Below are positions 504 through 42,866 of a DNA stretch of 64,000 nt, in pieces. A program made the translations under genes and the position numbers. Each line of letters begins with the position of its first letter. Within the stretch, counting starts at the first letter, position 1. Below the pieces are notes generated by a model. It did no database searches and had not been told where the DNA came from. It was given only the letters and a program-made list of their open reading frames with translations. Source of the DNA: an uncultured Candidatus Saccharibacteria bacterium (GTDB lineage Bacteria > Patescibacteriota > Doudnabacteria > UBA920); assembly GCA_964490395.1 (NCBI GenBank), contig CAZBAS010000005.1:17167-81166 (forward strand). The letters run 5' to 3'.

Positions 504-1910
504 TTACAGCTCGAAACTGTCATTATACTTCGGTACTACAATTTCCGCGTTCGGGAACTTTTCTTTAAGCATCGGCGCAAACGTAGTTGCTTGGTCCGTT
601 TCGGTGTGTACCAAGAATATTTTTTTTAGGCCATGAAGTGTTTGGATGTATTCAAGCAGTTGTTCCTGGTCGGCATGGGCAGAGAACTCGTTAAATACTA
701 CTATGCGCGCCCGTACGGTATGCTCGCGGTCGAATATTCTCACCGGGCTTACGCCTTCAATTATCTTTCTACCCAACGTACCTTCACCCTGGTACCCTGT
801 AAACATTACTATCGCGTTTTGGTCTTCAATGTTATTTTTCAGGTGGTGCAGTATGCGGCCGCCTTCGCACATGCCCGAAGCAGAAATAATCATGAAGGGT
901 CCAGCAGCATCATTGAGCCGTTTGGAGTCTTCTACTGAGTGGGTATATATCAAATTGCGAAAGGTGAGTGGAATTTCGCCGGCCTTAGTAAAGTCGTGCC
1001 AGGTCTCTTGGTCAAACTCTTCTGTGTGTTTACCAAATACCTCTGTCATGTTGGCAGCAAGAGGGCTGTCTATATAAATAGGCAGTCGTGGAATTTTCCC
1101 GCTGTCTGTGAGCTGATGGAGTATGTATATAAGCTCCTGGGTTCGGCCAAGGCTAAACGCAGGAACAATTATCTTACTTTTGTATTTGAAAGCGTCGTTA
1201 ATAATTTCAACCAGAGCCGCTTTGGCTTCTTCGGTAGATTTATGGTTGCGGTTTCCGTACGTACACTCAGACAAAAGTACATCCACTGGCTCTTGAATGG
1301 TTTCAGGGTCTCGCAGCATGGGTGTGTTTTTGTGCCCCAGGTCTCCGGTAAAGGCAATGGTTTGCAACTTTCCGTCCTCTGTTATTTCTAGAAGAATGAT
1401 GCTCGAGCCTAATATATGGCCAGCGTCGTAGAGCTTGAATCGTATTCGGTCGTTTATGCGCGTCCACTGTTGTGTGTGCCAGAAGTATGGGGTGGCAGCA
1501 AAGTGCGAGACGGTGGCTTCTACGTCTTCGGTGGTATAGACAGGGTATATGGGGTCTTGTCCGGGCAGTAAGTGGTCGTTGTAGTAGTTTGCGTCTTGCT
1601 CTTGTATTTTAGCGCTGTCTCTTAAAATGTAGGTGGCTACATCTACAGTTGCCGGGCTGGTATAAATGTTTCCGGTAAACCCTTTTTGTACAAGCAGTGG
1701 CAGCATGCCGCAGTGGTCTGCGTGGCCGTGTGACAAAATAACGGCGTCAATGTCACTCGCTTCAAAGGGTAGGTTTTTGTTTAGCTGGTTTACGTCGCTC
1801 CGCTTTCCTTGGTGCAAACCGCAATCTAGAAGTATTTTAAACCCCTGGGTGTCTATTAAATGTTTAGAGCCCGTTACGTTTTGGGCCGCCCCGTAGAAAG
1901 TAATTTTCAT
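504..1910 (-). CDS. MBL-fold beta-CASP ribonuclease (RNase J / CPSF-like)
   Basis: HGHADH metallo-beta-lactamase motif near the N-terminus; 468 aa with the layout of beta-CASP RNA-metabolising hydrolases. Confidence 0.75.
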   Translation of the reverse strand: MKITFYGAAQNVTGSKHLIDTQGFKILLDCGLHQGKRSDVNQLNKNLPFEASDIDAVILSHGHADHCGMLPLLVQKGFTGNIYTSPATVDVATYILRDSAKIQEQDANYYNDHLLPGQDPIYPVYTTEDVEATVSHFAATPYFWHTQQWTRINDRIRFKLYDAGHILGSSIILLEITEDGKLQTIAFTGDLGHKNTPMLRDPETIQEPVDVLLSECTYGNRNHKSTEEAKAALVEIINDAFKYKSKIIVPAFSLGRTQELIYILHQLTDSGKIPRLPIYIDSPLAANMTEVFGKHTEEFDQETWHDFTKAGEIPLTFRNLIYTHSVEDSKRLNDAAGPFMIISASGMCEGGRILHHLKNNIEDQNAIVMFTGYQGEGTLGRKIIEGVSPVRIFDREHTVRARIVVFNEFSAHADQEQLLEYIQTLHGLKKIFLVHTETDQATTFAPMLKEKFPNAEIVVPKYNDSFEL

Positions 1911-2040: not shown

Positions 2041-3498
2041 TTATGTGGGGATCTCACGGATGCGCTTGTTTTCTAAGAGGAGGGTGCGGTGTATGCCCAC
2101 TTCTTTAAGGAAGTAGCGGTCGTGGGAAATAATGAGTAGACCTCCTTGGTAGGTTTTAAGTGCAGACTCTATTATTTCTCGTGATTGGATGTCGAGGTGG
2201 TTGGTTGGCTCATCCAATATAAGCAGCTCACATGCTTCGTGTACGAGCTTGGCGAGCATGAGGCGAACTTGCTCACCGCTGGAGAGTTGGCTTATGCGCT
2301 TGTAGCGGTCTGCATCAAAAAACCCGTATGCAGCAAGAAAGCCACGAGTGTTGTCGGTCTTCATTTTATGACCAATGGTGCCCAGTATTTCTTGCTCCAC
2401 GGTGTGCTCCTGGTTTAGGGTGCGATGCTCTTGGTCAAAGTAGCCGACTCGGACATTTTCGCCAAGCTTAATTTCACCACTATCCGGCGCAAGGCTACCC
2501 ATAATGAGTTTTGTAATGGTGGTCTTGCCGCTGCCGTTAGCGCCTTTGAGCAGTACATGTTCGCTTCCCCGAAGTTCAAATGACGTGCTTTCGAGTAAAT
2601 GTGAATCTCCCAATCTTTTTTCAATCTCCGCAAACCTTACCAGCAGTTTTCCGCTGTGCGTAGCGCCTTCAAACGCTAGTTTTTTTATGGCTGCGGTATC
2701 TTGCGGCCTCACCATCTCTTGGCTATATATTTCTCTTTCCATTCGTTTTTTCCACGCTCGAATCACAGCACCATCGAGCTGGTCTCGTGCTCCGAGAATC
2801 TGCATTTCTTTAAGCTTGGCCCCCATGCTTTTCTTTTTTGTTTGCTGTACCTTGTAGAGTTCTTCAGCTCGGGCTCGTCGTATGGCTCGTTCCGCTAGGT
2901 ATGAGTCGTAGTTGCCCATGTATTCGTTTATATTTTTACTTTGCACATCAAACTCAACAATTTTGCTTACGCACTTATTTAGAAAAGCGCGGTCGTGAGA
3001 CACAATTACTACTGCACCACTAAATGCATGTACCAATTGTTCCAGCAGTAGAATGCCCTGGGTGTCTAAATGGTTGGTGGGCTCGTCCAAGAGTAGGGTG
3101 GTGGGCCGCTCCAAGAGTATTTTTGCAAGTGCAAGTCTTGTCTTTTGTCCGCCGCTTAAGGATGCTATGGCCAGAGATGTGTCTAGATGGCTTAGTCCTA
3201 CTTCAGCAAGCATTGCATCTGTCTGGTGTTCTTTATAGCTTTGGAGGTATTGGAATACAGATTGGGCTTGCTCCTCGTGCGGAATAACTTGCTCTAGGTA
3301 CCCCACGCGTTCTTTTTCTAGCACGACTTCGCCTTCGTCCGGAAATTCCATGGAGGCTATCATTTTAAGTAGGGTGGATTTACCCGCCCCATTTGGGCCA
3401 ACAATGCCTATGTGGTCACCACGGTGAATGGTGAGGTTCAAGTTTTTAAATAATGGTTCGTAGTTAACAAGTTTAGAGAGGTTTCGAATAAGAATCAT
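2041..3498 (-). CDS. ABC-F family ATPase (tandem ABC domains, EttA/Uup-like)
   Basis: Two Walker A motifs (GPNGAGKST, GANGSGKTT), two ABC signatures (LSGGQKTRL, LSSGEQVRL) and two Walker B motifs (LLLDEPTNHLD, LILDEPTNHLD); no transmembrane domain. The track ORF runs to 3651, but MILIRNL (ATG at 3496-3498) matches the usual ABC-F N-terminus. Confidence 0.85.
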   Translation of the reverse strand: MILIRNLSKLVNYEPLFKNLNLTIHRGDHIGIVGPNGAGKSTLLKMIASMEFPDEGEVVLEKERVGYLEQVIPHEEQAQSVFQYLQSYKEHQTDAMLAEVGLSHLDTSLAIASLSGGQKTRLALAKILLERPTTLLLDEPTNHLDTQGILLLEQLVHAFSGAVVIVSHDRAFLNKCVSKIVEFDVQSKNINEYMGNYDSYLAERAIRRARAEELYKVQQTKKKSMGAKLKEMQILGARDQLDGAVIRAWKKRMEREIYSQEMVRPQDTAAIKKLAFEGATHSGKLLVRFAEIEKRLGDSHLLESTSFELRGSEHVLLKGANGSGKTTITKLIMGSLAPDSGEIKLGENVRVGYFDQEHRTLNQEHTVEQEILGTIGHKMKTDNTRGFLAAYGFFDADRYKRISQLSSGEQVRLMLAKLVHEACELLILDEPTNHLDIQSREIIESALKTYQGGLLIISHDRYFLKEVGIHRTLLLENKRIREIPT

Positions 3499-3510
3499 AT
3501 ATATCCCTTC

Positions 3511-3604
3511 CGTCATTGCGAGGAAACTTTGTGACGAAGCAATCTGGGCTGTAGAAGCAAGATTGCCACGTCGGTCGCAGGGCCTTCCTCCTCGCAATGA
3601 CACG
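3511..3604. repeat. Inverted repeat upstream of the ABC-F gene
   Basis: gtcattgcgaggaa and ttcctcctcgcaatgac are a perfect 12-14 bp inverted repeat separated by about 60 nt. Confidence 0.35.
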
Positions 3605-3871
3605 GTGGAGAAAGTTATGTATAAACAAAAAAGACCCAGTATTGGGTCCATATGATTCTTACACGAAAGTTGTACTTATACGCTAGAAGTCATATTTTTT
3701 ACCCAATACAAAAACAGCCCCCTCATAGTGCCCTGTTCGAATACCTAGTTCTGCTAGAGTTCTCTTTTTCATATATTGGTAAAAATTGACTTATGTATTA
3801 TACCACGCGCTACTACATTGCGCAAACGATTGTGTAACAAGGGTGACCCTTGTTTGCAACTTGTTTGCCAG

Positions 3872-5351: not shown

Positions 5352-6797
5352 TTATTGTGCTTTTTCCATAATGCCGATTGGTGGCTGCTGGCTTTGGCTA
5401 TCGAGAATTTCTTTTACGAGCGGTACTACTACATATTTATTGTACGGATGTGCGGGGTCGCTGCTTGTAGCTGGGAAGAGGAGTGCAGGGGCGTAGACTT
5501 CATTGCCTGTTTGCTCGTTTGGCTTTTGCAACCAAGAGCGTACGAGCCCGTGCACAGGTGTGCCCAGGGTTACGGTGACTTTGGTCGATCCTGGCATATC
5601 TCCGGTGTAGCTGTTTCCTTCCGCCACTGCGACCAGGCGCTTAAAGTCCGTTACGGTGTCGTATTTAGATTCTTCAAGGCGAAGAGGTCCGTAGTCAAAC
5701 ACACCGGCAACTCGTTTGTGCCACAAAGATATGTTTACCACTAGGCCTGCAGGGTTACCCGCTTCGTCAAGGACAGTCTCTCCCTTAATTTTACGAGGAT
5801 ATACCACTGATGCGTAGGGGGGTGCGGAATTGGGGTCTGTGGTAAGGTTTGCCTTAATTTGGTCCCAACCTGCTTGCATTTCTGGGTCGCCATATTCGGC
5901 AAGGCTTATTCCTTGGTCTTTGAAAAAGTTATTTGCAATGCTTACTAAGTCTGCGTCGCTAACGGGGTTTGCAGCATAGTGTTGTTTTAAGCACTCGCTA
6001 TTGTAATTGCACTCAGTATAGTCGTTAGGCCATCGTTGCCAATTCTGGTTTAGGGTAATGGATCCGTTTAAAAAGTCTATGGTTGCTGTGTAACCAAAAT
6101 CGCGGTCATCGTGGAACGACACGGTCTCCATTTGGGGGTTTGTGAAGTTGGTGAATCCAAAGCTTTTGAGGTTTAAGCGGCTCAGTAGGCTTTTTTGCAA
6201 CTCCGGGAAGGCATTGCGTGACCGAAGGTACACTGAGGCCGAATTGTCTTTCAGTTCTATCTGCCCTCCTTTATACACAAAAGTGTATTGGACCATAACG
6301 GGCATGGAGCTGGGCGCTATCATTTTTCCGTCTGTTGCTTGTGGCGCGGCTGCAGCTGCGGAAGCGCTCCCTTCTGTCCCGCCACCGCCCTTACCACCTG
6401 CGGTTACCGTGGCTAGGCTGCCAAAGGCTTGGGGTTTGGTGCTCACAATACTCGTTTTTCCATCTATCTGTGAGACCGCAGATTCAAAACTACTGAGGTT
6501 GGTTTTCTGCTTATACACTACAGTGGTGGTAACGAGTCCAATAATGGCAAGGGTAGCAAAAGTTGTAGTGAGCCAAGAGAATCTATGGCTCGGCATGTGT
6601 GCTGGCTGCTGAATGGTGGCCTGTGCAGCAAGTCTTTGGCGAAGTGTGTGTGCAAACGCTTCGTCTACCGTGACCTCGGGCCTGCTGGCAACAAGCTGGG
6701 TAATAATGGTTACGAGCTTTTGCTCGTGCTTTTTGAAGTCAGGATCCAGTGCGTATAGATCGCGTAGTATATCTTGAATTTTTTCTGGGGTTGTCAT
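5352..6797 (-). CDS. Anti-sigma-factor-like membrane protein
   Basis: Lies immediately downstream of the ECF sigma gene; N-terminal cytoplasmic helix region, one TM segment (LTTTFATLAIIGLVTTTVV), G/A-rich linker and an extracytoplasmic domain. Confidence 0.55.
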   Translation of the reverse strand: MTTPEKIQDILRDLYALDPDFKKHEQKLVTIITQLVASRPEVTVDEAFAHTLRQRLAAQATIQQPAHMPSHRFSWLTTTFATLAIIGLVTTTVVYKQKTNLSSFESAVSQIDGKTSIVSTKPQAFGSLATVTAGGKGGGGTEGSASAAAAAPQATDGKMIAPSSMPVMVQYTFVYKGGQIELKDNSASVYLRSRNAFPELQKSLLSRLNLKSFGFTNFTNPQMETVSFHDDRDFGYTATIDFLNGSITLNQNWQRWPNDYTECNYNSECLKQHYAANPVSDADLVSIANNFFKDQGISLAEYGDPEMQAGWDQIKANLTTDPNSAPPYASVVYPRKIKGETVLDEAGNPAGLVVNISLWHKRVAGVFDYGPLRLEESKYDTVTDFKRLVAVAEGNSYTGDMPGSTKVTVTLGTPVHGLVRSWLQKPNEQTGNEVYAPALLFPATSSDPAHPYNKYVVVPLVKEILDSQSQQPPIGIMEKAQ

Positions 6798-6810
6798 AGG
6801 AGTAGCAAAT

Positions 6811-6889
6811 AATATCTAATTTCTAATATCTAATGTCTAAATAAACTCCAAATCCTACATTAGGAATTAGATATTAGACATTTCTAAAT
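6811..6889. repeat. CTAAT-based palindromic intergenic repeat, copy 1
   Basis: aatatctaatttctaatatctaatgtctaaat ... attaggaattagatattagacatttctaaat sits between the sigma and anti-sigma genes; related copies are at 14058-14129 and 21418-21506. Confidence 0.5.
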
Positions 6890-7459
6890 CTACAGTTTAA
6901 GCAGTAATAATAACGCTATCGCTGCGGCGCCGAAATTTGCTTGTAGTTTGCTTATGGTGCGCGAGTAATTCATTTTCACTGCAGCTTCGCTCATGCCAAG
7001 CACTGCTGCTATGTCTTTATGGGGTAAGTCGTCCCATACACGCATTATGACAATGTCTCGTTGAGTAGCGTCCAGGGTGTTCAGAAACTTTTGTACAGAG
7101 TCAATGTCAAATGCAGTACTCGCATCGTGCGCAGGATTATGGTGCGATGCTACGTCTTTTGCAGTATCTATATCTTCTACACTTTTACGTGTGCGTGTAT
7201 GGTCAATAATCTTGTTCCGAGCAATGGTGTACAGCCAGGTGCTGAACGAAGCCTTAGACGCACTAAAGGTGTGTATTTTTTCTAGCGCAGATATAAATAT
7301 GTCACTCGTGACATCTTCTGCAGTTTGCCTGTGGGGGAGCCGGTGAAAAACAAAGCGGTAGATTCGCTCTAGATACGCATCGTACAGCTTAGTAAATTCT
7401 TCCAGCTCGCCCTTGGCAATTGCCGCGAGTATTCTATTTTCGTCTAACATGTCTTGCAT
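6890..7459 (-). CDS. ECF-type RNA polymerase sigma factor (sigma-70 regions 2 and 4)
   Basis: Region 2 FVFHRLPHRQTAEDVTSDIF; region 4 HTH LPHKDIAAVLGMSEAAVKMNYSRT; 189 aa. Confidence 0.8.
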   Translation of the reverse strand: MQDMLDENRILAAIAKGELEEFTKLYDAYLERIYRFVFHRLPHRQTAEDVTSDIFISALEKIHTFSASKASFSTWLYTIARNKIIDHTRTRKSVEDIDTAKDVASHHNPAHDASTAFDIDSVQKFLNTLDATQRDIVIMRVWDDLPHKDIAAVLGMSEAAVKMNYSRTISKLQANFGAAAIALLLLLKL

Positions 7460-7590: not shown

Positions 7591-8088
7591 TTGTTTATAC
7601 CCCATATGCATTTAAAGACACGCACAACAGTAAGCTTTCTCAGAATTTCCTCTTGGGGACACGACGCGGGTCGTGGGTTTACTTTGGTAGAGCTGCTGGT
7701 GGTCATTGGTATTATTGGCCTGCTCGCCTCCGTGGTGCTTACAAGTTTGAGTTCAGCGCGAAAAAAATCGCGCGATGCCAAGCGAGTAGCCGACATGAAG
7801 CAGCTTGCCACCGCGATGGAGCTATATTTCAATGATTACAGCGGGTACCCGGCTGCCTCTGGTACTGCTCCAGCAGTGCCCGCGGGCCTTACGCCAGGCT
7901 ATATAGCTGCCCTGCCAGTTGCTCCTCAGCCGTACGATGGTTGCAATGCCCTTGCCGCAAGTAACTACTACAATTACACTCCAAGCACTGCTCCTGCTAC
8001 AACGTACGCCTACACCTTTTGTCTGAGTGCGACCACTGGTAGCTACACAGCTGGGAGTCATACTTTGAGCCCTGCGGGTATACAATAA
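7591..8088 (+). CDS. Type IV pilin / pseudopilin-like protein (prepilin N-terminal cleavage and methylation domain)
   Basis: G|FTLVELLVVIGIIGLLASVVL class III signal peptide after a roughly 24-aa leader; ATG start probably at about 7606 (MHLKTRTT). Confidence 0.75.
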   Translation: MFIPHMHLKTRTTVSFLRISSWGHDAGRGFTLVELLVVIGIIGLLASVVLTSLSSARKKSRDAKRVADMKQLATAMELYFNDYSGYPAASGTAPAVPAGLTPGYIAALPVAPQPYDGCNALAASNYYNYTPSTAPATTYAYTFCLSATTGSYTAGSHTLSPAGIQ

Positions 8089-8153
8089 TCTTCTTCTTGC
8101 ATAATTATAAAACCGGCACCGAGCCGGTTTTGTTTAAATGCAGTTTCATGTAT

Positions 8154-9973: not shown

Positions 9974-10741
9974 TTACACCGCATCTGGGAGCGAATCCCA
10001 TAATAAATTGAATAGTGAGCGCATAGAGGTGGCAACTTTTGAGTTTTGAATAACGCAGGCAGAAGGGTTTTTTATATCTGGATCAATAATTGCAAGTTTA
10101 TTCCCATAAACCCAGAATGATATAGCGAATTCATACCTATTTTTATTAAAGAGTTTAATTTTTCTATACTTTTCATTCATGCCAACGAGGTTTTGCATGA
10201 AGGGGGTGTGCGGCGCAATCCATCTGACTGGTATTTGTTCTTTTATTCTCTTTTGAACAAAGTGTTTGTCGTGGTCCGGCATAAGCTCGTATACATACTC
10301 ACCAGCTGAGATGCCCACTATCTCCCTGTTGGTTTTAGCGTTTTTTAGACTAAGTAAGCCTTCTTCGTATATTCGTTTAATGTTCTCTTTTCCTTCAAAA
10401 AAACGGACGGTCGACTGTTTAATTTCTTGGTGCGTCAAAGCTTGGAGTAAGGGAATGGTGTCGCGAAAATTATGCAAGGTGCGTTCAAGTTGGTACGCAA
10501 GTCGTTCGGGTGGTTCTGCCGCAAATGCTTTCCTTTTGCCACTTATGAAGTGGCTAATAAACCCTTTAGCCTCAAGCCTGCCAACTATAAGGTTTACAGT
10601 ACTGCGTTTTAAGCCAGTTTCATCTGTAATTTTTTGTATTGTAAGTCCTGGTTTCGCAACAAGGCATGTTAAATAAACCTTTATTTCAGGTGGTTTTAGC
10701 CCGAGACCTTCCATGTCACTGTATATGTCTTCATTAAACAC
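9974..10741 (-). CDS. TrmB-family transcriptional regulator
   Basis: N-terminal wHTH (IKVYLTCLVAKPGLTIQKITDETGLKRSTVNLIVGRLEAKGFI) plus a TrmB-like C-terminal domain; a paralog is at 45580-46323. Confidence 0.65.
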   Translation of the reverse strand: MFNEDIYSDMEGLGLKPPEIKVYLTCLVAKPGLTIQKITDETGLKRSTVNLIVGRLEAKGFISHFISGKRKAFAAEPPERLAYQLERTLHNFRDTIPLLQALTHQEIKQSTVRFFEGKENIKRIYEEGLLSLKNAKTNREIVGISAGEYVYELMPDHDKHFVQKRIKEQIPVRWIAPHTPFMQNLVGMNEKYRKIKLFNKNRYEFAISFWVYGNKLAIIDPDIKNPSACVIQNSKVATSMRSLFNLLWDSLPDAV

Positions 10742-12083: not shown

Positions 12084-12287
12084 TTATGGCGCTATGCTTA
12101 GGGGAAAATATCGTTTATCAGACAGTTTTAGGTAATTATTAACAGAATTGCGCAGGCCTTTTATGTCCGATTGGAGTCTGGTCTCAACCGTGCTCAGTCT
12201 GGTCTCAACCGCGTCTATCTTGTTGCTTAGCTTTTTATCAACGGCCGCAATATCTGTGTTTACTTGTTCAAAGCCCCGAGTAGTCAT
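12084..12287 (-). CDS. Small coiled-coil hypothetical protein
   Basis: 67 aa containing a tandem 16-nt DNA repeat (agtctggtctcaaccg twice) that encodes ETRLSTVETRL; weak. Confidence 0.3.
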   Translation of the reverse strand: MTTRGFEQVNTDIAAVDKKLSNKIDAVETRLSTVETRLQSDIKGLRNSVNNYLKLSDKRYFPLSIAP

Positions 12288-12357
12288 TACTGCTAAGTCT
12301 TCTAGGGTTACCCGTTTTGGCGTAAGAGTTTTTTCATACTGCTACGATACCATTGCC

Positions 12358-14001
12358 TTAAGTGTTTCGCAAGTGTTTCTCGTAGTACTCCATGTCTGCG
12401 TCGGTCTTTTTGTGGGGGTTAAATATGTTCAGTGGGTCAAATATTTTTTTAGTTTGACGGAATAGCTCCATAACGTGGGAGCCGTACATCATTTCTAGGT
12501 AGGGACCGCGTACAATGCCATCGTTATGTTCGGCGGTAATGGAGCCTCTATATTCCATAACTAGTGCAAAAACTTCGTTGGAGAGTCGTACTACTGCATC
12601 TCGTTGTGACTGCTCGGTTAGGTCCATGAGCGGCATTATGTGGAAATTGGCATCTCCGGCGTGTCCTGCAATGGTGTAAATAAAGTTTGGGTAGCGGGCA
12701 AAAATTTTGTTTAAGCGGGGAAGGAATTCGGGCAGCTGGTCGGAATGGACAATAATATCTTCTATAAAACACGCAGCAAGCCTATTTTTCGTATGCTGGC
12801 GAAGCAAGTTATAGCTCTCGCGGCGAATAGTCCAGTACTTCTTTGCGTCTACAACATCTTTAGTTATGCGGGAGGAAAGTTTAAATGTTGACTCTATGGC
12901 AGTTTGGGTGGCGCGGGCTTTCTCTAAAGCCTTTGCATCGGTATCTGCGGTAAACTCCGCAAGCAAGACCAGGCGAGGGAAGCCGCCCGTTATGGACATC
13001 CATATTTCGGGGAGGAACTGTTTTAAGAGGCTTAGGCTTTTACCGCCCATTTTTTGCATTATCTCTGGCAGGTACTGCATGGCGAGCCGCAGTGTGTGGT
13101 CGTCGTAGAGTTCAAAACTTTCAGGACGATATTTTTTAATCTCGTTTACAACACGGCCAAGGTCAGTTAGGTCCTGCATGAACACCACCACCATGCGGCT
13201 ATGAGGCTTCACGGGTACGAGTTGAAAAGTGATGTTCGTAATTATGCCTAGTGTGCCTTGCGAGCCAACCAGTAGTTTGGTAAGGTCAAATGTTTGGCCA
13301 TCCCATACCTTCCACAAATAGTAGCCAGCAGAGTTTTTAGACGTAGAAGGTTCTGCTTTTTTTATGAGTTCGTAATTGCTCGATATGAGGTGCCATATTT
13401 TTTTATATAGGGTGCCCTCAAAGCTATTCTCTTTTATTTTATTTATCAGCTGGGCTTCGGTAAGAGGTTGTATGGTGTGCGTTTTGCCGTCGGCAAGTAC
13501 AATGTCGAGTTTTTTGACCCAATCCACTGTTTGCCCGTACGATAAAGATTTTTCACCGCCAGCATTGTTTCCCACCATGCCTCCTACGCCGCATATGGCC
13601 TTAGAAGCCGGGTAACTAGGCATTATAAGATTGTGCTTCAGGGTAACTTTTTCTAAGTCTCGGTAGTAAGCACCAGGCTGCACATCTATAGTTTGTTCGT
13701 CAGTAACACTGCCAATGGTATGTAAATGCTCGGCAAAGTTTATGAGCACAGATTCGGTAATGCTGCCGCCCGTCATGTCTGTGCCGCCGGCGCGCGGTGT
13801 AAGAGATATGTCTTGGCCTTCTTCTTTTGCGTTTGTGGCAAAAGCAACTAAAGACTCTATGTCCGCAGTACTTGTAGGGCTGGCGACTATTTCGGGCGTG
13901 GCTTCAAATATACTCGCGTCGTGGCTAAATGTAGCGCGGGTAGGGGCGTCCACGTGTATTTCGCCAGTAAAATTTTGTTTTAGTTTCTCTACGTCAATCA
14001 T
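12358..14001 (-). CDS. FAD-linked oxidase (PCMH-type FAD-binding domain; GlcD / D-lactate dehydrogenase / vanillyl-alcohol-oxidase family)
   Basis: 547 aa; FAD-binding N-terminal domain (RAGGTDMTGG) and a C-terminal FAD-oxidase domain. Confidence 0.8.
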   Translation of the reverse strand: MIDVEKLKQNFTGEIHVDAPTRATFSHDASIFEATPEIVASPTSTADIESLVAFATNAKEEGQDISLTPRAGGTDMTGGSITESVLINFAEHLHTIGSVTDEQTIDVQPGAYYRDLEKVTLKHNLIMPSYPASKAICGVGGMVGNNAGGEKSLSYGQTVDWVKKLDIVLADGKTHTIQPLTEAQLINKIKENSFEGTLYKKIWHLISSNYELIKKAEPSTSKNSAGYYLWKVWDGQTFDLTKLLVGSQGTLGIITNITFQLVPVKPHSRMVVVFMQDLTDLGRVVNEIKKYRPESFELYDDHTLRLAMQYLPEIMQKMGGKSLSLLKQFLPEIWMSITGGFPRLVLLAEFTADTDAKALEKARATQTAIESTFKLSSRITKDVVDAKKYWTIRRESYNLLRQHTKNRLAACFIEDIIVHSDQLPEFLPRLNKIFARYPNFIYTIAGHAGDANFHIMPLMDLTEQSQRDAVVRLSNEVFALVMEYRGSITAEHNDGIVRGPYLEMMYGSHVMELFRQTKKIFDPLNIFNPHKKTDADMEYYEKHLRNT

Positions 14002-14057
14002 ATTTTAATTATAGCAGAAGGTGGCTCATAGTATTTCGGATACGCTATACTATGAGT

Positions 14058-14129
14058 AATATCTAATATCCAATATCTAATTTCCAATACAAGACAAACC
14101 TTATCCAGCCTTTAGAAATTAGTAATTTC
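14058..14129. repeat. CTAAT-based intergenic repeat, copy 2
   Basis: taatatctaatatccaatatctaatttccaat ... tagaaattagtaatttc lies in the divergent region between 14001 and 14140. Confidence 0.45.
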
Positions 14130-14139
14130 TTTTACCCCC

Positions 14140-14904
14140 ATGTTTGCATTTTTAGGTTTCCTGTTTTTTCTCATTGTTCTATTTTTCATAGTCCTTGCAG
14201 TCAATGGACGCGTGCAGCGCCTTACCTACGAAGAGAGTTTTTCGCGGGGGAAAGTGCCAGATTCAACGCTGGATGGCGCGCAGCAGGGTAACGCGCACGT
14301 ACTGTACGGCGCGCAGGTTGGTTGGAAAGGTAAACGTTTTAGCGCGCAGCAGGGCACAGGCATTAATGTGCTCACTGGCACGGGGCAGCGCTTGGCATCT
14401 ATACTCACGCCTCGCTACAAAAAATTTGAAAAGCAGGCAGATGGAACGTTCACGGCCTACGAATTTACTACAAGCGTTGGGCCTGGAATTAAAAACCCGC
14501 AGCAACAGGTGTTAAAACTAGACTACAACTCTGAGCTTAACCCAAGCATTATCCGCATTATAGAAGATGAAGTAGTAGAAATAGATCCTGGTCGCTACCT
14601 TGCAAAGATTCACCTGCAAGTACTCCCGGGGCTGTATTGGACCATTGGCTATTTTGCGTTACAGAAAGCTGAGTGGGGAACTGCTTCCCTTCCGTTACCG
14701 AGAGAGCAAGTCACGGAATCGGTTTCTGCTACGCATGCTGGTGAGCCACCCCCTACTGCAGCGGAGCCTGTTCCTCCATTGCCTGTAGTGCCACCTGTAG
14801 AACCGGCACATTCCGATTCTGTATCCACTCCGTCTATAGCACCCATTAATGCGTCTGCGCCAAATTCCTCCCATGATCTGCAGCGTGCACAGTCAGAAAT
14901 ATAA
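14140..14904 (+). CDS. Membrane-anchored hypothetical protein with a Pro-rich C-terminus
   Basis: N-terminal TM helix (FAFLGFLFFLIVLFFIVLAV); C-terminal PPPTAAEPVPPLPVVPPVEP. Confidence 0.5.
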   Translation: MFAFLGFLFFLIVLFFIVLAVNGRVQRLTYEESFSRGKVPDSTLDGAQQGNAHVLYGAQVGWKGKRFSAQQGTGINVLTGTGQRLASILTPRYKKFEKQADGTFTAYEFTTSVGPGIKNPQQQVLKLDYNSELNPSIIRIIEDEVVEIDPGRYLAKIHLQVLPGLYWTIGYFALQKAEWGTASLPLPREQVTESVSATHAGEPPPTAAEPVPPLPVVPPVEPAHSDSVSTPSIAPINASAPNSSHDLQRAQSEI

Positions 14905-17788: not shown

Positions 17789-18511
17789 CTATACGGTGGC
17801 TGTGCGTTTCTGTGCAAGGTAGTATGCTCTCTCCTTTGGCGTTAGTCTTTCTATGGCATAGCGGAGCATGGTACGGGGCATGGTGGTAGCGGTTTCATTT
17901 AAAAAGCGCGTGAGTACTTGTTTGTCGCGCTTGCCAACTTCTCGGAGCATCCAGCCGCTTGCTTTATGGATGAGGTCGTGGGTGTCTGTAAGTAGTAGCT
18001 TAGATATGGCGAGTGTGTCGCTAAATTGTTCGTGCCGAATAAAATCGAAGGTTGCGACTATGGCCATGCGGCGCTCCCACAAGTTTTTAGACTTTGCCCA
18101 CTTGTAGAGTAGTGTTTTTGGTTTATCACGGAGATGCGGTCCCACTATATATTCGACCGAGGTGTCTACTAAATCCCAGTTGTTAATGTACCTCGTATTG
18201 CGTATATAAAAATTGTATAGTGCCTTCTGAGCTGCACTAGTTGCGGCATCGTATTGCATGACTAAGATTTCCAAAGCAGTAAACCTATGTTCGTGGGTTT
18301 TGCTTTTGAGCAGCTTTTGTATTTCAGCGAGCGGTAAATTTCTATAGAGCTTTGCTACCTCGCGCTGTGCAGGCACGGTAATTCCCAAAAAAATATCACC
18401 TTCGCCATATTCACCAGGGCCAGTTTTAAAGAACCGACTTAGCCCGGCTGCTTTTTCAGAATTGGCCAGCATTTTTAGCTCTTTCTGCACTTGGTTTGCT
18501 GTTGCTGTCAT
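17789..18511 (-). CDS. DNA alkylation repair protein (AlkD / AlkC-like HEAT-repeat glycosylase family)
   Basis: The ELKMLANSEKAAGLSRFFKTGPGEYGEGDIFLGITVPAQREVAK N-terminus is typical of the DNA_alkylation family; likely start MTATANQ at 18511. Confidence 0.7.
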   Translation of the reverse strand: MTATANQVQKELKMLANSEKAAGLSRFFKTGPGEYGEGDIFLGITVPAQREVAKLYRNLPLAEIQKLLKSKTHEHRFTALEILVMQYDAATSAAQKALYNFYIRNTRYINNWDLVDTSVEYIVGPHLRDKPKTLLYKWAKSKNLWERRMAIVATFDFIRHEQFSDTLAISKLLLTDTHDLIHKASGWMLREVGKRDKQVLTRFLNETATTMPRTMLRYAIERLTPKERAYYLAQKRTATV

Positions 18512-20694: not shown

Positions 20695-20918
20695 GGGTAG
20701 CCTATTCCTGCAAAGCAATCACACCTGTGGTTGCTTTTTTGTTATTCTCTGGCTATGCGCTGTTGTTTTTGCGCATACAATGCTCCTGACTTGGGTCCTT
20801 CATTGGGGGCTAGACACTGGAAATTGTCCGCCCCAGGGGGGTCGCCTTGGGAGGAGAGATTAGAAATTTGCTTGGGGTTTGCTATACTACATACGTCAAT
20901 AATGGTTATATAAAAGTA

Positions 20919-21419
20919 ATGCCAAAGACTACTACCCGCAGCAAAAGTAAAAAAGACGTAATAGAACCAAAGCCTTCTAAGTTTAGACTTATAGCCAAAC
21001 GCTCAAGTGCTGGCCTTGGCTTGTACACCCTGGACCCTATCAAAAAGGGTGAAAAAATAATCCAATACGGCGGATACAAAATAACGAATGAAGAAGCAGA
21101 TAGGCAAGGGGGGAAGTATTTATTCGAAATCATAGACAGTAAATTCACTATAGACGGTACGCCGCGGTGGAATATTGCACGGTACGCAAATCATAGCTGC
21201 AAGCCAAATAGTGAGGCAGTATGGTACGGCCAAAATGTGTGGATTTGTTCCAAGAAAAACCTACAGCCCGGGGATGAAATTACCTACAATTACGGCAAAG
21301 TATATTTTAACGATATTATCGGCGGCGAGAAGCATTGCATGTGCGCCGTGCATCATCCTAAAAAGGGGTACCTCGGCAAGCTAACAGATGCAGAGATAAA
21401 GAAATATGGTAAAAAATAA
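20919..21419 (+). CDS. SET-domain protein (putative protein-lysine methyltransferase)
   Basis: GLGLYTL, ARYANHSCKPN and ITYNYG motifs plus a post-SET CMCAVHH; the track start 20847 is TTG, and the ATG at 20919 (MPKTTT) is more likely. Confidence 0.75.
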   Translation: MPKTTTRSKSKKDVIEPKPSKFRLIAKRSSAGLGLYTLDPIKKGEKIIQYGGYKITNEEADRQGGKYLFEIIDSKFTIDGTPRWNIARYANHSCKPNSEAVWYGQNVWICSKKNLQPGDEITYNYGKVYFNDIIGGEKHCMCAVHHPKKGYLGKLTDAEIKKYGKK

Positions 21420-21506
21420 TGCCTAATGCCTAATATCTAATTTCTAATGCTCGGACCAGATTCAGTCTTTGCCATTAGATATTAGGAATTAGTAATTAGA
21501 CATTTC
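21418..21506. repeat. CTAAT-based intergenic repeat, copy 3
   Basis: taatgcctaatgcctaatatctaatttctaatg ... cattagatattaggaattagtaattagacatttc lies between the SET gene and mscL. Confidence 0.5.
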
Positions 21507-21514
21507 AGCTACTT

Positions 21515-31600: not shown

Positions 31601-31603
31601 GAA

Positions 31604-31742
31604 GCATGCGAGCATGTAAACATATAAACATATAAGCATGTAAACAAAATACGACTGCCACTGGCAGTCGTATTTGTATTTTTGCTTATATGTTCTTTTG
31701 TTTACATGTTTGCATGCTTACATGTGTTTGTATGCTTGCATG
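31604..31742. terminator. Long imperfect palindrome with a central hairpin after the histidine kinase
   Basis: Central perfect hairpin aaatacgactgcc-act-ggcagtcgtattt (31647-31675), flanked by inverted catgtaaaca/tgtttacatg repeats. Confidence 0.5.
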
Positions 31743-35082: not shown

Positions 35083-35157
35083 TCGGGAGTAGCTCAGCGG
35101 TAGAGCGGCACGCTGTTAACGTGATGGTCCTGGGTTCGATCCCCAGCTCCCGAGCCA
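35083..35157 (+). tRNA. tRNA-Asn (anticodon GTT), CCA encoded
   Basis: Acceptor tcgggag/ctcccga; D-arm gctcagcggtagagc; anticodon loop ctGTTaa; T-arm ctggg-ttcgatc-cccag; discriminator g, then cca. Confidence 0.85.
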
Positions 35158-35470
35158 ACAAAAAAGTAGTACTTTAGTACTACTTTTTTGTTGGCTCGAT
35201 GAGGAGTGCAGGGATCGAAGGGAACGGTCCCGTACCGCAGGGAATTTCATGCGAATACTTGCAGCATGAAATAGTGGCGGGGTCGCGTTAGGTGAGAACT
35301 GAAACGACCTTAAGGAGTTGAAGTTCCACCGTGGGTGACCAATCCCCAGCTCCCGAGCCAACAAAAATACGTCACCTTTTGGTGGCGTTTTTTTCTTGGC
35401 TCATGGAGGAGCGCAGGGATTGAAGGGAACGGTCCCGTACCACGGGAATTTCATGCGAACACTTAGGGCT
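35150..35470 (+). repeat. Direct repeats of the tRNA-Asn 3' end, long hairpins and a duplicated ~65-nt segment
   Basis: atccccagctcccgagccaacaaaaa recurs at about 35339-35364. Each copy is followed by a long hairpin whose stem includes cgagccaac (gagccaacaaaaaagtagtac-ttt-gtactacttttttgttggctc). The segment ttggctcgatgaggagtgcagggatcgaagggaacggtcccgtacc... is repeated imperfectly at about 35396. Confidence 0.45.
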
Positions 35471-35770: not shown

Positions 35771-36997
35771 ATGAATTTCGGTTTTGTAAGTCAACATGGT
35801 CTTGGAAGTTTGCAGCAAGAAGTTATTGAGCGTAAAGGAATTGGGCATCCGGACACCCTAACTGACGCGTTAGCTGAACGTATGTCGGCTCACTACGCCC
35901 AGTACACATTGAAGCATTACGGAGTTATTTTGCACCATAATTTTGACAAGTTACACATACTTGGCGGTGCAACAGAGCTAGATTTTGGCGGTGGTAGGCT
36001 GATACGCCCCATCAGAGTTATTATAAACGGTAGAGCGTCTGCAAGCTTCGCCGGTGAACAACTGCCTGTCCAGTACATTCTGGGCGATGCAGCACGGTCA
36101 TTCTTTCAGGAGCGTTTTCCTGGATTGATTGACCCGGCTCGCGACCTTGAATTTCACTGGCTGGTCAGTACTTCCAGTAGCCCAGGCAGAACTAAGCGGA
36201 CTACTGGGGCGAGAGCATACATGTTTAATCCTCGGACAGTCGCCGAAGTGAAAGGTTACGACGGTCCCTTGGTCAACAACGATACTTCCATGGGGTGCGG
36301 CTACGCGCCGTATTCTATTCTGGAAGCAGCGGTGTTGGGTCTGGAGAGGGATTTGAACAGCAGTGTCCGGAAGGATGAATTCCCATGGCTTGGTACCGAC
36401 ATTAAAGTCATGGCCGTGCGGCAAGATGATCTCATTTCCATTACGGTGTGCTTGCCGCAAATAGCAAGTAAAGTGGCAAGTGAACGCGCGTACCAAGAAA
36501 ATTTGGCTACGTTGGACCGGCATATCAGGAGACAGCTTGCCCGGCTACTTCAAGGCGCGCCGTTCGAACTGGGGTATAACACCCGCGACAACAGGCGTAC
36601 AGGCGATTACTATCTTACTGTCACAGGCACTGCCCTTGAGTCTGGCGATGAAGGAGTAGTGGGTCGCGGTAATCGCATCAACGGTCTTATTACACCATTC
36701 CGACCGATGAACTTGGAAGGGGTGTGTGGTAAGAATCCACTCTACCATACGGGAAAGTTATATAACATAGTGGCGCAGCGAATCGCTGAGCGTATTCACC
36801 GCGAAACTGGCGCGTACTGCGAAGCGTACTTAGTGGGCCAAAGTGGACAAGCGTTGCTTGACCCGTGGTCTGCAACTATACGCAGCGCAGATACTAACTT
36901 GGATGCAGCAACTGCCCAAGCGTGGGCAGTTGAAGAAATACAACAAATTCCTGCTATAACCCAAGCGTTGGTGAAGCAGGAATTGACGTTATGGTAA
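35771..36997 (+). CDS. Archaeal-type S-adenosylmethionine synthetase (methionine adenosyltransferase, MAT)
   Basis: ERKGIGHPD, ILHHNFD, NNDTSMGCGYAP, DIKVM and YYLTVTGTALESGDEGVVGRGNRINGLITPFRPMNLEGVCGKNP...HTGKLYN are collinear with the archaeal MAT family; SD gaggagg upstream. Confidence 0.85.
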   Translation: MNFGFVSQHGLGSLQQEVIERKGIGHPDTLTDALAERMSAHYAQYTLKHYGVILHHNFDKLHILGGATELDFGGGRLIRPIRVIINGRASASFAGEQLPVQYILGDAARSFFQERFPGLIDPARDLEFHWLVSTSSSPGRTKRTTGARAYMFNPRTVAEVKGYDGPLVNNDTSMGCGYAPYSILEAAVLGLERDLNSSVRKDEFPWLGTDIKVMAVRQDDLISITVCLPQIASKVASERAYQENLATLDRHIRRQLARLLQGAPFELGYNTRDNRRTGDYYLTVTGTALESGDEGVVGRGNRINGLITPFRPMNLEGVCGKNPLYHTGKLYNIVAQRIAERIHRETGAYCEAYLVGQSGQALLDPWSATIRSADTNLDAATAQAWAVEEIQQIPAITQALVKQELTLW

Positions 36998-40760: not shown

Positions 40761-42866
40761 ATGGCCTACCAAAATTACGAGAAAAATGAGAGTAAGTTGT
40801 CTCACCATAAGCAGTTTAAGAAGGAGTTAAAACCTCCGCTCCTTACGCTTAATATGACAACCTATTCTTGGATAAATGACCGCATGCCTGAAATGTTATG
40901 GGCGGTTTTAGTCATTGGGAATATAGAAAGAGAAATTGCCTTAAAATTTTTCAGAACTATTGCCGAATTTGTACATAAGAATCCTGACTGTTCAGATGTA
41001 ACACTTACTGGTATTAGCAAATTTCATGAAGAAAAGAAAAAGCAATTTATTCAACTTGCCACAAGCTGGTCAGAGGAAGTAAAAAATGTCTTAAAGCCTT
41101 TGATGTGGCTTGAGCAGCTACCAGCAAAAGAAGTATGGAAGGAATTGCTAGGAGAACCTGCAAGGAAGGATGAAGATTTTAATAAACTAGCCAATGGCGT
41201 ATCTAAGACTTACTGGCACCAATCAGAAGCAGCTACTGACTGTAGATGGATTAAATTTTTGTGCCAGATACTAGGCGGAAAAATGTCTTTTACAAAAGGT
41301 ATGGAAGATAAAGTAAAAGGTGTTTTAGAATATCCAAACTACGGAGATTTGAAAACTATAAGACCCTTTATAAGGGCATCTGAAATTATGCCATCCGACC
41401 CTGATGCGGATAAACCTTTTCATAGTGATTGGTCATTTAATTTTTGGCAACAATGTTTTGATGAAACTGGTTGTCTCCCAGAAGAGAAGGTTAGTCAGAA
41501 AATCCGAAAGAAACAAGACGATTTGTTTCAAGAAATGAAAAAATCAAGAGAGTTTAGATTAAAGCAAATAGTTGATGTAAGACATAATTTAATTGAACAC
41601 TCGATTAAGGAGTCAAAAATTTCTTCTGTAGATGCAAGACATGAAGGAAGTTTTGGTTTGGCTTTGTATGGTCTCTCTCTGTATATTGAAATTATTTTTT
41701 ATACAGTATCACTCTCGATTACGGGCAGATTGGCTATGCGAGCTTTAGTAGAGTGTTATATAACATTTAAGTATTTATTACAAAAGGAAAAAAGTGAGCC
41801 AGCCATATGGGACACTTATCGCGAGTACGGAAACGGGCAACTAAAGCTGCTTTATCTAAAACTCAAAGAAATGAACCAGAAGATAGGAAGTATTGAAATT
41901 GATACACTAGACGAATTAGCGAATGAAGATAAATCGGTTGAGTTTGTTCCTATAAATCTAGGGAATTGGGACTCTGAAAATTTGAGAAAAATGGGCGCAG
42001 AAGCTGGGCTTAAAGATTTATACGATAAATACTATAGCTATACATCTGGTTTCATGCATGGAAGCTGGGGAGCTGTCAGAGAGTCTATTTACCAAAAGTG
42101 CGTAAATCCTCTTCATAGATTTCACAGAATACCTATTTTTGATATGCCTTTAATGTCGAGTGTGGTTGACGATGCAACAGAAATTATGAATGGCATCCTA
42201 GAATGTTTGTCAGTAGCATATCCTAAATTTGATGATAGATTATTAAATTCTGATAGCCTAGACAAAACAGAGGCTAAGTCAGAAGAACTAAGCCCTCAAC
42301 CAATTAAAGCAAGTAGCATCGCTAAGGGAATACATCATAGCATTAAAAATGCGGAAAGATATGTTCAGTCAGCTAAGGAGCTGAAAACTAAAGATAAACA
42401 GGCTGCCTATCTCTTATTTCTTTATGCGCTAGAAGAAATGGGAAAAGTTCCTTTAATTTGGAATGCTTTATTTCATACAGAAACAAAGAGTGAATGGCTA
42501 AAGTGGCAAAGAAGGTTCAAAGACCATGCAGAAAAATTTTGGTTTAGTAGAGATCTTGAAGATTTTGATGAGAGGAAATTATCTAACAAAGAAAATAAGG
42601 CGGAAACAAAAATGGCAGCTAAAAAACTAGATGTATCTTACGTTAGCTTTGATGGTGAATTTCAACCCCCTGAAGATGTAGGCGAAGAGGAATTGGCGAA
42701 GATAGAGTTAAATTGCGAACGCAGAATCGCGTTCTTAAAAAGAAATCATAAATCAATTGAAGAGGACGAAAAAAGAATTGTAGAAGGTTATAAAAAAATG
42801 AAAGGTCTGACACAGGAAGAATTGAAAGAAATGATCAAGAACATGCAAAAAGAAAAATCGGATTAG
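40761..42866 (+). CDS. Large AT-rich, Lys-rich orphan protein (701 aa), unknown function
   Basis: About 35% GC against about 48% in its flanks; no family recognised; internal R-x5-H (VRHNLIEH) and a C-terminal K/E-rich coiled-coil-like tail. Confidence 0.6.
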   Translation: MAYQNYEKNESKLSHHKQFKKELKPPLLTLNMTTYSWINDRMPEMLWAVLVIGNIEREIALKFFRTIAEFVHKNPDCSDVTLTGISKFHEEKKKQFIQLATSWSEEVKNVLKPLMWLEQLPAKEVWKELLGEPARKDEDFNKLANGVSKTYWHQSEAATDCRWIKFLCQILGGKMSFTKGMEDKVKGVLEYPNYGDLKTIRPFIRASEIMPSDPDADKPFHSDWSFNFWQQCFDETGCLPEEKVSQKIRKKQDDLFQEMKKSREFRLKQIVDVRHNLIEHSIKESKISSVDARHEGSFGLALYGLSLYIEIIFYTVSLSITGRLAMRALVECYITFKYLLQKEKSEPAIWDTYREYGNGQLKLLYLKLKEMNQKIGSIEIDTLDELANEDKSVEFVPINLGNWDSENLRKMGAEAGLKDLYDKYYSYTSGFMHGSWGAVRESIYQKCVNPLHRFHRIPIFDMPLMSSVVDDATEIMNGILECLSVAYPKFDDRLLNSDSLDKTEAKSEELSPQPIKASSIAKGIHHSIKNAERYVQSAKELKTKDKQAAYLLFLYALEEMGKVPLIWNALFHTETKSEWLKWQRRFKDHAEKFWFSRDLEDFDERKLSNKENKAETKMAAKKLDVSYVSFDGEFQPPEDVGEEELAKIELNCERRIAFLKRNHKSIEEDEKRIVEGYKKMKGLTQEELKEMIKNMQKEKSD

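Follow-up and report, generated by a model that had tools for sequence, protein, structure and literature searches.

Inverted CTAAT heptamer arrays in short intergenic spacers as probable gene-less relatives of PF05635 cassettes

The 64-kb stretch of contig CAZBAS010000005.1 analyzed here, from an uncultured Candidatus Saccharibacteria bacterium and called the window at its full length throughout, contains three CTAAT repeats, numbered loci 1, 2 and 3 by position. Judging from the sequence comparisons described below, these loci are probably members, without an open reading frame (ORF), of a class of cassettes that resemble the intervening sequences (IVSs) of 23S ribosomal RNA (rRNA) and are lodged in short intergenic spacers. 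A full-length member of the class is a cassette of ~450 nt comprising a 5' CTAAT arm of 3–5 units of 7 or 9 nt, a gene for an intervening-sequence protein (IVP) and a 3' ATTAG arm. The window copies would relate to such a cassette as a miniature inverted-repeat transposable element (MITE) relates to its parent, or as an ORF-less 23S IVS relates to an ORF-bearing one. The cross-phylum association of IVP genes with heptamer arrays is a more interesting result than the hairpins of the window themselves.

Loci 1–3 share one layout, in which tandem arrays of 4–5 heptamers TAATNTC (equivalent to NTCTAAT) are followed by a spacer of 17–25 nt and then by inverted heptamers GANATTA (Table 1). One position in each heptamer is free, and it is usually mismatched when the stem forms. 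Tandem Repeats Finder called period-7 arrays at 6810-6840 (4.4 copies, TAATATC), 14057-14089 (4.7 copies) and 21417-21450 (4.9 copies), as well as inverted arrays at 6857-6882 and 21481-21499, confirming the three repeat loci reported in the initial annotation. All three are long heptanucleotide simple sequence repeats (SSRs) by the usual definition, having at least three head-to-tail 7-nt copies in non-coding DNA, and all three are CTAAT-first, with 4–5 units per arm at loci 1 and 3; locus 2 is a degenerate copy with five CTAAT units and ~2 inverted units. When TCTAATNTCTAAT was searched with up to one mismatch, 12 matches were found in the window, all within the three loci, against an expectation of 0.39 and a maximum of 3 in dinucleotide-preserving shuffles of the window. 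Considering that GC content is 45% overall and 40–48% locally, an AT-rich background does not explain the 12 matches; chance was rejected as the origin of the repeats, and the earlier claim that they exceed background holds.

The inverted arms of locus 1 (6818-6840/6860-6882) are 23 nt long and 87% complementary, and those of locus 3 (21417-21441/21474-21498) are 25 nt long and 88% complementary. On either strand these two loci fold at −19 to −31 kcal/mol (z-scores from −3.6 to −5.0), values unmatched by any shuffle. The resulting imperfect stems of ~25–31 bp are in line with the terminal inverted-repeat stem of ~20–30 bp that characterizes an IVS. The imperfect hairpin of about 30 bp that had been ascribed to every locus is thus borne out at loci 1 and 3 (z about −5) and absent from locus 2, which folds weakly, with an 11-bp stem and z-scores of +0.7 and −1.8. 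At all three loci the stems are A+T-rich and mismatched.

The periodic arms are the only part that the loci have in common: the three spacers are mutually unrelated, and the order and number of units also vary from locus to locus. The loci are a repeated architecture built on one unit and not a single conserved sequence, and because the spacers have nothing in common they are not copies of one repeated sequence such as a repetitive extragenic palindrome (REP). This bears on the suggestion, made in the initial annotation, of a REP-like or MITE-like family. REPs, or bacterial interspersed mosaic elements (BIMEs), mobilized by a REP-associated tyrosine transposase (RAYT) are likewise intergenic, palindromic and often found within operons, and the window loci are imperfect palindromes of about REP size, some of them inside operons. 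However, the heptamer is all the conserved sequence that the copies have in common, they show neither a REP consensus nor a GTAG-type head, their arms are internally periodic, which those of REPs are not, and the related long form carries a PF05635 gene in place of a Y1 transposase. Nothing among the selected window ORFs that were scanned points to a RAYT, although no search was aimed at one. We consider a REP/BIME origin highly improbable, and the REP-like half of the suggestion was abandoned.

The relationship to longer, gene-bearing elements emerged from a survey seeded with the repeat. A pattern scan with CTAATNTCTAATNTCTAAT over 185,579 species genomes returned at least 119 loci, and the matches listed include Patescibacteria, Bacteroidota, Chloroflexota, Planctomycetota, Campylobacterota, Nitrospinota, delta- and gammaproteobacterial metagenome-assembled genomes (MAGs) and others. 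The layout of array, spacer and inverted array was present in ~20 of these at least 119 loci, and period 7 was the commonest tandem period in all fetched loci, with 572 rows compared with at most 149 for any other period. Among the matches listed, the gaps between neighboring inverted period-7 arrays clustered at 10–77 nt (36 pairs) and at 333–447 nt (7 pairs). Five of the seven pairs with the longer gap enclose a PF05635 gene or a frameshifted or pseudogene copy of it, namely those in a relative of the window species (L129), a Bacteroidota MAG (L094), Sulfurovum (L027), Planctomycetota (L043) and Confluentibacter (L067). In L043, AT-rich CTAAT arms surround an IVP gene and neighboring sequence that are visibly G+C-rich. 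A local hidden Markov model search found only two further IVP genes in the ~1 Mb examined, both with periodic flanks.

As a control in which the repeat was not used, metagenomes were searched with a two-sequence IVP alignment, and the best 80 of 521 relatives were kept, 74 of them with sufficient flank. At 58 of these 74 loci, at least three CTAA[AT] motifs lie within 150 nt upstream of the IVP gene and at least three [AT]TTAG motifs within 150 nt downstream, whereas random windows from the same loci satisfied the two flank criteria in 1.2% and 3.9% of cases and the reverse order occurred at 2 of the 74. The 53 clean cassettes have an arm-to-arm gap of 361–571 nt and 3–5 units per arm (mode 4), with units of 7 nt (TTCTAAT) or 9 nt (TGACCTAAT, TAACCTAAT). 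The IVP start codon is placed where the arm ends on its inner side (CTAAATAATG), and in many cases it is followed by an inner stem (CTAATCAAATCCCAATG / CATTGGGATTTGATTAG). The contigs of the protein-seeded loci also hold nine ORF-less hairpins with spacers of 9–86 nt, and several of these look like internal deletions because they retain the ATG and the first codons. Short hairpins are CTAAT-first in 20 cases and ATTAG-first in 3. The MITE-like half of the suggestion therefore stands in part. The window loci are short elements without an ORF, present in several copies, and their inverted ends recur, in other genomes, in longer gene-bearing elements, alongside which ORF-less forms occur in the same contigs; the apparent internal deletions are a further likeness. 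Unlike in MITEs, the parent has no recognizable transposase, its gene being PF05635, and the ends are variable-number tandem arrays instead of fixed terminal inverted repeats.

The cassette protein belongs to PF05635/TIGR02436, has ~120 residues and is the four-helix-bundle '23S rRNA intervening-sequence protein', also called S23p or IVP. It is a distant homologue of Avd, a protein of diversity-generating retroelements (PF22296 bAvd-like, E 4e-4; NF033474, E 1.4e-4), with scores far under the family cut-offs. Avd is a pentamer that binds nucleic acid and the reverse transcriptase. In contrast to Avd loci, the surroundings of the cassettes contain neither a reverse transcriptase nor a template or variable repeat. 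None of the defense systems listed in PADLOC contains the protein, and only 2 weak matches were found in 50,697 phage records, suggesting that carriage by phages is rare.

A blastn-short comparison set the window arms directly against the 80 IVP loci. Some 80% of the matches fell within the IVP flank zones (two of 180 nt, 11.6% of the sequence) and had the expected strand. For locus 3, the 5' arm matches the arm upstream of one IVP gene (L190) at 30/32 nt (E 2.5e-8), and the 3' arm matches the arm downstream of another (L203) at 26/27 nt (E 1e-7). The best matches between window and cassettes take in the non-periodic terminus ATTAGACATTTCA, and non-periodic termini of the form AATGNCTAAT ... 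ATTAGNCATTT are common to both sets of arms. In addition, the spacer of locus 1 is similar to the CAAATCC(C)AAT zone in the inner stem of IVP cassettes, and the 12-nt sequence CTCCAAATCCTA recurs in one cassette (L148), a resemblance that is suggestive only.

The main rival explanation is that the loci are independent SSRs, in which slippage expands a heptamer and template switching at the quasi-palindrome copies it across, so that the likeness to cassettes reflects convergence or a bias in how heptamers are made. This is in line with the predominance of period 7 among the fetched loci, with the finding that in many bacteria heptanucleotides outnumber every other class of long SSR (Mrazek 2007, as cited in PMC4679880) and with the lack of pair specificity between cassette arms described below. 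The lineage also has periodic hairpins built from other units. In L129 (GCA_964648985.1, CAZYMS010000022.1), AGACATG-type arms at 8043-8130 are wrapped round a canonical terminator (8075-8100; z −11.9), TAATGAG-type periodic arms are located exactly at a stop codon, and a periodic hairpin whose unit is quite unlike that of the window loci lies at 12250-12322; a second relative, L126, has one at 18095-18215. In the window itself, a histidine-kinase gene is immediately followed by a periodic region at 31602-31742, in which 8-mer units (AAGCATGT / AAACATAT) and their inverse stand on either side of a perfect 14-bp terminator-like hairpin (31647-31675); folding of the 148-nt region gave −72.4 kcal/mol (z −11.2). 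Slippage alone, however, leaves unexplained the CTAAT-first bias of 20 to 3, the shared non-periodic termini with the two near-identical matches of locus 3, the narrow range of 3–5 units, and the AT-rich arms around the G+C-rich-looking gene of L043. We regard independent SSRs as an unlikely origin of the loci.

Pairing between arms was examined for the cassettes. The duplex of cognate arms was calculated at −31.5 kcal/mol compared with −27.9 kcal/mol for non-cognate arms (p = 0.004). Because the cognate advantage is slight, selection for a specific stem is weak, and the idea of strong selection for one specific stem was dropped on account of this small difference in duplex energies. The arms do form a stable stem, yet the conserved feature is the motif array and not the individual base pairs. 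Conservation at the level of the motif is compatible with a protein that recognizes the unit, with fast slippage or with exchange among copies; the first of these would agree with the shared protein-binding site that the initial annotation raised as an alternative.

Several observations weigh against a derivation of the window loci from IVP cassettes. The 64-kb window contains no PF05635 gene (best E 0.28), and traces of a former ORF in its spacers amount to the suggestive 12-nt resemblance to cassette inner regions. The sole IVP cassette seen in this lineage, that of L129, uses different arm units. The 80 control loci are the closest relatives of two IVPs found beside CTAAT arrays, and the figure of 78% with flanking arms applies to that subfamily only. 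Arms are largely interchangeable among these cassettes, a 5' arm having its cognate 3' arm as best partner in only 2 of 70 cases, and similarity between short periodic sequences can be convergent. No direct repeats indicative of target-site duplication are evident at loci 1 and 3, where they were looked for without a systematic check. Finally, loci 1–3 are 100% identical across five independent assemblies of the same species, with no variation in copy number, so the arrays are not visibly hypervariable. Phase variation of the contingency-locus type was also considered and rejected, as the loci lack the logic of coding or promoter SSRs and do not vary between strains.

The gene neighborhoods of the three loci differ (Table 1). 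Locus 1 occupies the 92-nt spacer between the extracytoplasmic function (ECF) sigma factor gene and the 481-aa gene; on the transcribed minus strand its ATTAG side forms the 5' arm, after the sigma-factor stop codon (6890-6892), and the ATG of the 481-aa gene lies 12 nt past the hairpin. An earlier placement of this locus inside a sigma/anti-sigma operon is right about the sigma factor and not about its partner, in which a domain search found no recognizable anti-sigma domain; only 8 homologues of the 481-aa protein are known, and no relatives of it were found in metagenomes. Locus 2 lies, as had been described, in a divergent spacer, between the FAD-linked oxidase gene and the 254-aa gene. 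At locus 3 the SET-domain gene takes its stop codon from the first TAA of the array, and the locus ends 8 nt ahead of the mscL start codon; its flanking genes, previously given as convergent or co-directional, are co-directional.

Table 1. Coordinates of the repeat arms and of the neighboring genes in the window
Feature	Coordinates	Strand	Remarks
Locus 1, CTAAT-type arm	6810..6844		TAATATC TAATTTC TAATATC TAATGTC TAAATAA (4-5 heptamers)
Locus 1, spacer	6845..6858		ACTCCAAATCCTAC
Locus 1, inverted arm	6859..6886		ATTAGGA ATTAGAT ATTAGAC ATTTCTA
Locus 2, CTAAT-type arm	14057..14091		TAATATC TAATATC CAATATC TAATTTC CAATACA
Locus 2, residual inverted arm	14112..14130		TTTAGAA ATTAGTA ATTTC
Locus 3, CTAAT-type arm	21417..21449		TAATGCC TAATGCC TAATATC TAATTTC TAATG
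Locus 3, spacer	21450..21472		CTCGGACCAGATTCAGTCTTTGC; contains a small inner hairpin
Locus 3, inverted arm	21473..21507		CATTAGA TATTAGG AATTAGT AATTAGA CATTTCA
481-aa protein gene	5352..6797	-	no family match; downstream neighbor of locus 1
ECF sigma factor gene	6890..7459	-	PF04542, PF08281, PF07638; upstream neighbor of locus 1
FAD-linked oxidase gene	12358-14001	-	left neighbor of locus 2
254-aa protein gene	14140-14904	+	right neighbor of locus 2
SET-domain gene	20847-21419	+	precedes locus 3
mscL	start codon 21515	+	follows locus 3

Comparison with relatives shows that the element is present in some and absent from others at orthologous positions. Gene order around the locus 1 spacer is kept in all relatives. 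In L130, whose neighboring protein is 59% identical, a CTAAT hairpin (z −4.4) occupies the orthologous sigma spacer, and there are no heptamers at this spacer in L126 (64%) or L129 (63%), implying that the element was gained or lost within the lineage. Between L130 and the window, ~40 of ~43 aligned positions are identical in the gene-proximal 3' arm and start region (window 6786-6826, L130:1160-1200); the other arm is shuffled in L130, where the spacer, longer by 20 nt, includes CAATGTC. The near-identity of the gene-proximal arm could be due to selection, gene conversion or recent re-insertion. The cassette of L129 (10687-11108) is a 119-aa PF05635 '23S_rRNA_IVP' gene within inverted GTAATNA / ATTACTN arrays, between the genes for AhpC and acylphosphatase; the first array provides the AhpC stop codon and the last overlaps the ATG of the following gene. 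The corresponding spacer of L126 has no PF05635 gene and contains an 8-mer CGAAT-type periodic hairpin instead (18090-18218).

The pattern in L130 also bears on a regulatory reading, in which the arrays are iterated DNA- or RNA-binding sites of a host regulator and the three gene pairs form a regulon. The near-identity of the arm beside the 481-aa start codon next to a shuffled partner arm would agree with such sites, as would the conservation of the motif over that of base pairs and the location of locus 2 in a divergent promoter region. Against this, the neighboring genes (ECF sigma factor, FAD oxidase, SET-domain protein and MscL) are functionally unrelated, arms of this kind are found beside genes of unrelated kinds in at least 8 phyla, the sigma spacer is without the element in two of the three relatives, and no candidate regulator is linked to loci 1–3. 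We consider it improbable that the arrays are cis-regulatory sites.

The loci could also be transcription terminators, or protective stem-loops at 3' ends, that happen to be built from repeats. Periodic arms do wrap canonical terminators elsewhere, in L129 and at 31647-31675 of the window, and loci 1 and 3 start at a stop codon or a few bases past one. However, the stems are AT-rich and mismatched, and no terminator-like site was called at loci 1, 2 or 3, where neither a G+C-rich stem nor a T-run was found; the promoter and terminator scan as a whole gave nothing meaningful at these loci. Considering how tightly the genes are spaced, with only 92 nt between those at locus 1, whose order is kept in all relatives, and 8 nt between the end of locus 3 and the next start codon, termination at either locus would shut off the gene that follows. 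As for locus 2, it lies at no 3' end. A terminator or 3'-end function is very unlikely as an explanation for the repeats, and the intrinsic-terminator reading was rejected.

If the loci are ORF-less members of the cassette class, the following sequence of events can be envisaged. The elements would enter short intergenic spacers, or be lost from them, and their arms would arise or grow through slippage of the heptamer, as suggested by the differences in heptamer number among Coxiella strains. The CTAAT-first layout is its own reverse complement, so the RNA of either strand has the form 5'-(CUAAUNN)n ... (NNAUUAG)n-3' and would form an imperfect duplex of 25–31 bp. As there is no G+C-rich stem and no T-run, the hairpins would be read through, joining the sigma factor gene to the 481-aa gene and the SET-domain gene to mscL in common transcripts. 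By analogy with the intervening sequences of Coxiella rRNA, the duplex would be a substrate for RNase III, and cleavage would uncouple the flanking cistrons or re-tune their stability and translation. This functional step, comprising read-through, an RNase III cut in the 25–31 bp duplex and uncoupling of the flanking cistrons, is proposed tentatively, as a possibility drawn from that analogy. Every unit also carries a stop codon, TAA in one arm or TAG in the other, and with a unit length of 7, which is not divisible by 3, a run of three units blocks each of the three reading frames.

The closest known counterparts are the 23S rRNA IVSs with an S23p ORF of Leptospira, Coxiella burnetii, Xanthomonas and Brucella: in the longer elements related to the window hairpins, a protein of this family is likewise encoded in the loop of a stem formed by terminal inverted repeats. 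Like the cassette class, these IVSs exist in ORF-bearing and in short ORF-less forms (Salmonella and others), and they are regarded as selfish or formerly mobile. The IVS of C. burnetii is a 428-nt 'selfish' element whose S23p (PF05635) ORF occupies the loop closed by a terminal stem of 28 bp. Where stem and ORF meet there are 2–3 tandem heptamers of the unit GACAGAT, varying in number by strain, and RNase III cleaves at the first of them (PMC4990558). Mobility of IVSs has been proposed since 1990–93 and never shown (PMC4990558). Unlike these, the window elements lie between protein-coding genes and not in helix 25 or 45 of 23S rRNA, an Rfam search having found no rRNA in the window; their arms consist wholly of CTAAT heptamers, they have no ORF, and for them RNase III cleavage is an inferred step only.

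A few other features of the window were recorded. In the Rfam search at gathering thresholds, a tRNA was the sole match in the window, with nothing at loci 1–3; the 3' end of this tRNA gene (35083-35154) overlaps a perfect 23-bp palindrome at 35151-35198 (CGAGCCAACAAAAAAGTAGTACT/AGTACTACTTTTTTGTTGGCTCG). A perfect 18-bp inverted repeat at 1997-2034 (TGCATTACCTGTGTCACA / TGTGACACAGGTAATGCA) lies just past the 3' end of an ABC-F (EttA-like) gene (2041-3651, minus strand), between it and a beta-CASP gene (504-1910, minus strand), and may act as a 3' stem-loop or bind a protein. Several genes have an archaeal flavor, namely a beta-CASP aCPSF1/Cas14-like nuclease, an archaeal-type methionine adenosyltransferase and TrmB-family regulators (504-1910, 35771-36997, 9974-10741), and they stand in a bacterial context with the ECF sigma factor, a GGDEF-EAL protein and a type IV pilin-like protein. 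The start regions that were read in the window are without Shine-Dalgarno sequences. A 701-aa protein encoded at 40761-42866 combines DUF5677 with a HEPN_AbiV / AbiV-family abortive-infection domain and is possibly the product of a defense gene in a locally AT-richer segment (40% GC at 40–44 kb).

Beyond CTAAT, other arm units surround four-helix-bundle genes (L215-L218). They comprise GTCGGAG/CTCCGAC in Nostoc punctiforme plasmid pNPUN01, AATTCAA/TTGAATT in N. flagelliforme and further unit types in Pseudanabaena and Bernardetia. Inversion of the arms is clear in both Nostoc plasmids, in Pseudanabaena and in the metagenome cassettes (L131-L210), and only partial in Bernardetia. Periodic arms are the general rule around these genes, the arm unit differs between IVP protein subfamilies, and the taxa are ones known for heptamer repeats (Nostocales, Bernardetia/Flexibacter). 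The GTCGGAG-armed gene of pNPUN01 (162119-163050) is immediately upstream of a gene for an XisH-family excision factor. MacGregor (2015) reported that TAACTGA heptamer repeats and XisH/XisI are similarly distributed across the phylogeny, that the repeats are patchy across Beggiatoaceae, Cyanobacteria and Bacteroidetes, and that 169 repeat sets were direct and only one indirect (PMC4679880).

The window arrays resemble such heptanucleotide repeats, including the short tandemly repeated repetitive (STRR) sequences of cyanobacteria, the long SSRs of Mrazek et al. 2007 and TAACTGA, in having tandem 7-nt units in strictly intergenic positions with 2–6 copies per set. As in those repeats, they abut start and stop codons, their units hold stop codons, no mechanism is known for them, and their patchy distribution across phyla suggests horizontal spread. 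They differ from TAACTGA-type repeats in the unit and in forming inverted, hairpin-forming pairs. The link to PF05635 is absent from PMC4679880, and PMC4990558 mentions such a link for Coxiella only; in the literature searched, which covers older work thinly, dispersed heptamer hairpins are not linked to PF05635 genes beyond the Coxiella IVS.

A broader proposal, which we put forward as conceivable yet doubtful, is that PF05635 genes with periodic inverted arms represent one cross-phylum family of selfish cassettes, whose gene-less derivatives and arm fragments would be the source of a large share of the unexplained heptamer (STRR-like) arrays in Cyanobacteria, Bacteroidota, the candidate phyla radiation and others. 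The Avd-related protein would recognize its own unit and mediate the spread, maintenance or RNA processing of both forms, and the window hairpins would be members that depend on it in trans. If the link holds, the heptamer arrays, known since 1990 without a mechanism, the 23S IVSs and the highly abundant orphan four-helix-bundle genes may be one phenomenon. It would provide a concrete candidate protein together with a defined RNA or DNA motif, and would explain repeats that are patchy across phyla. It would also define a class of hairpins inside operons, between a sigma factor and its partner gene or ahead of mscL, where processing by RNase III could re-tune expression. For genome annotation, periodic arrays could then be recognized as the ends of elements and not as noise.

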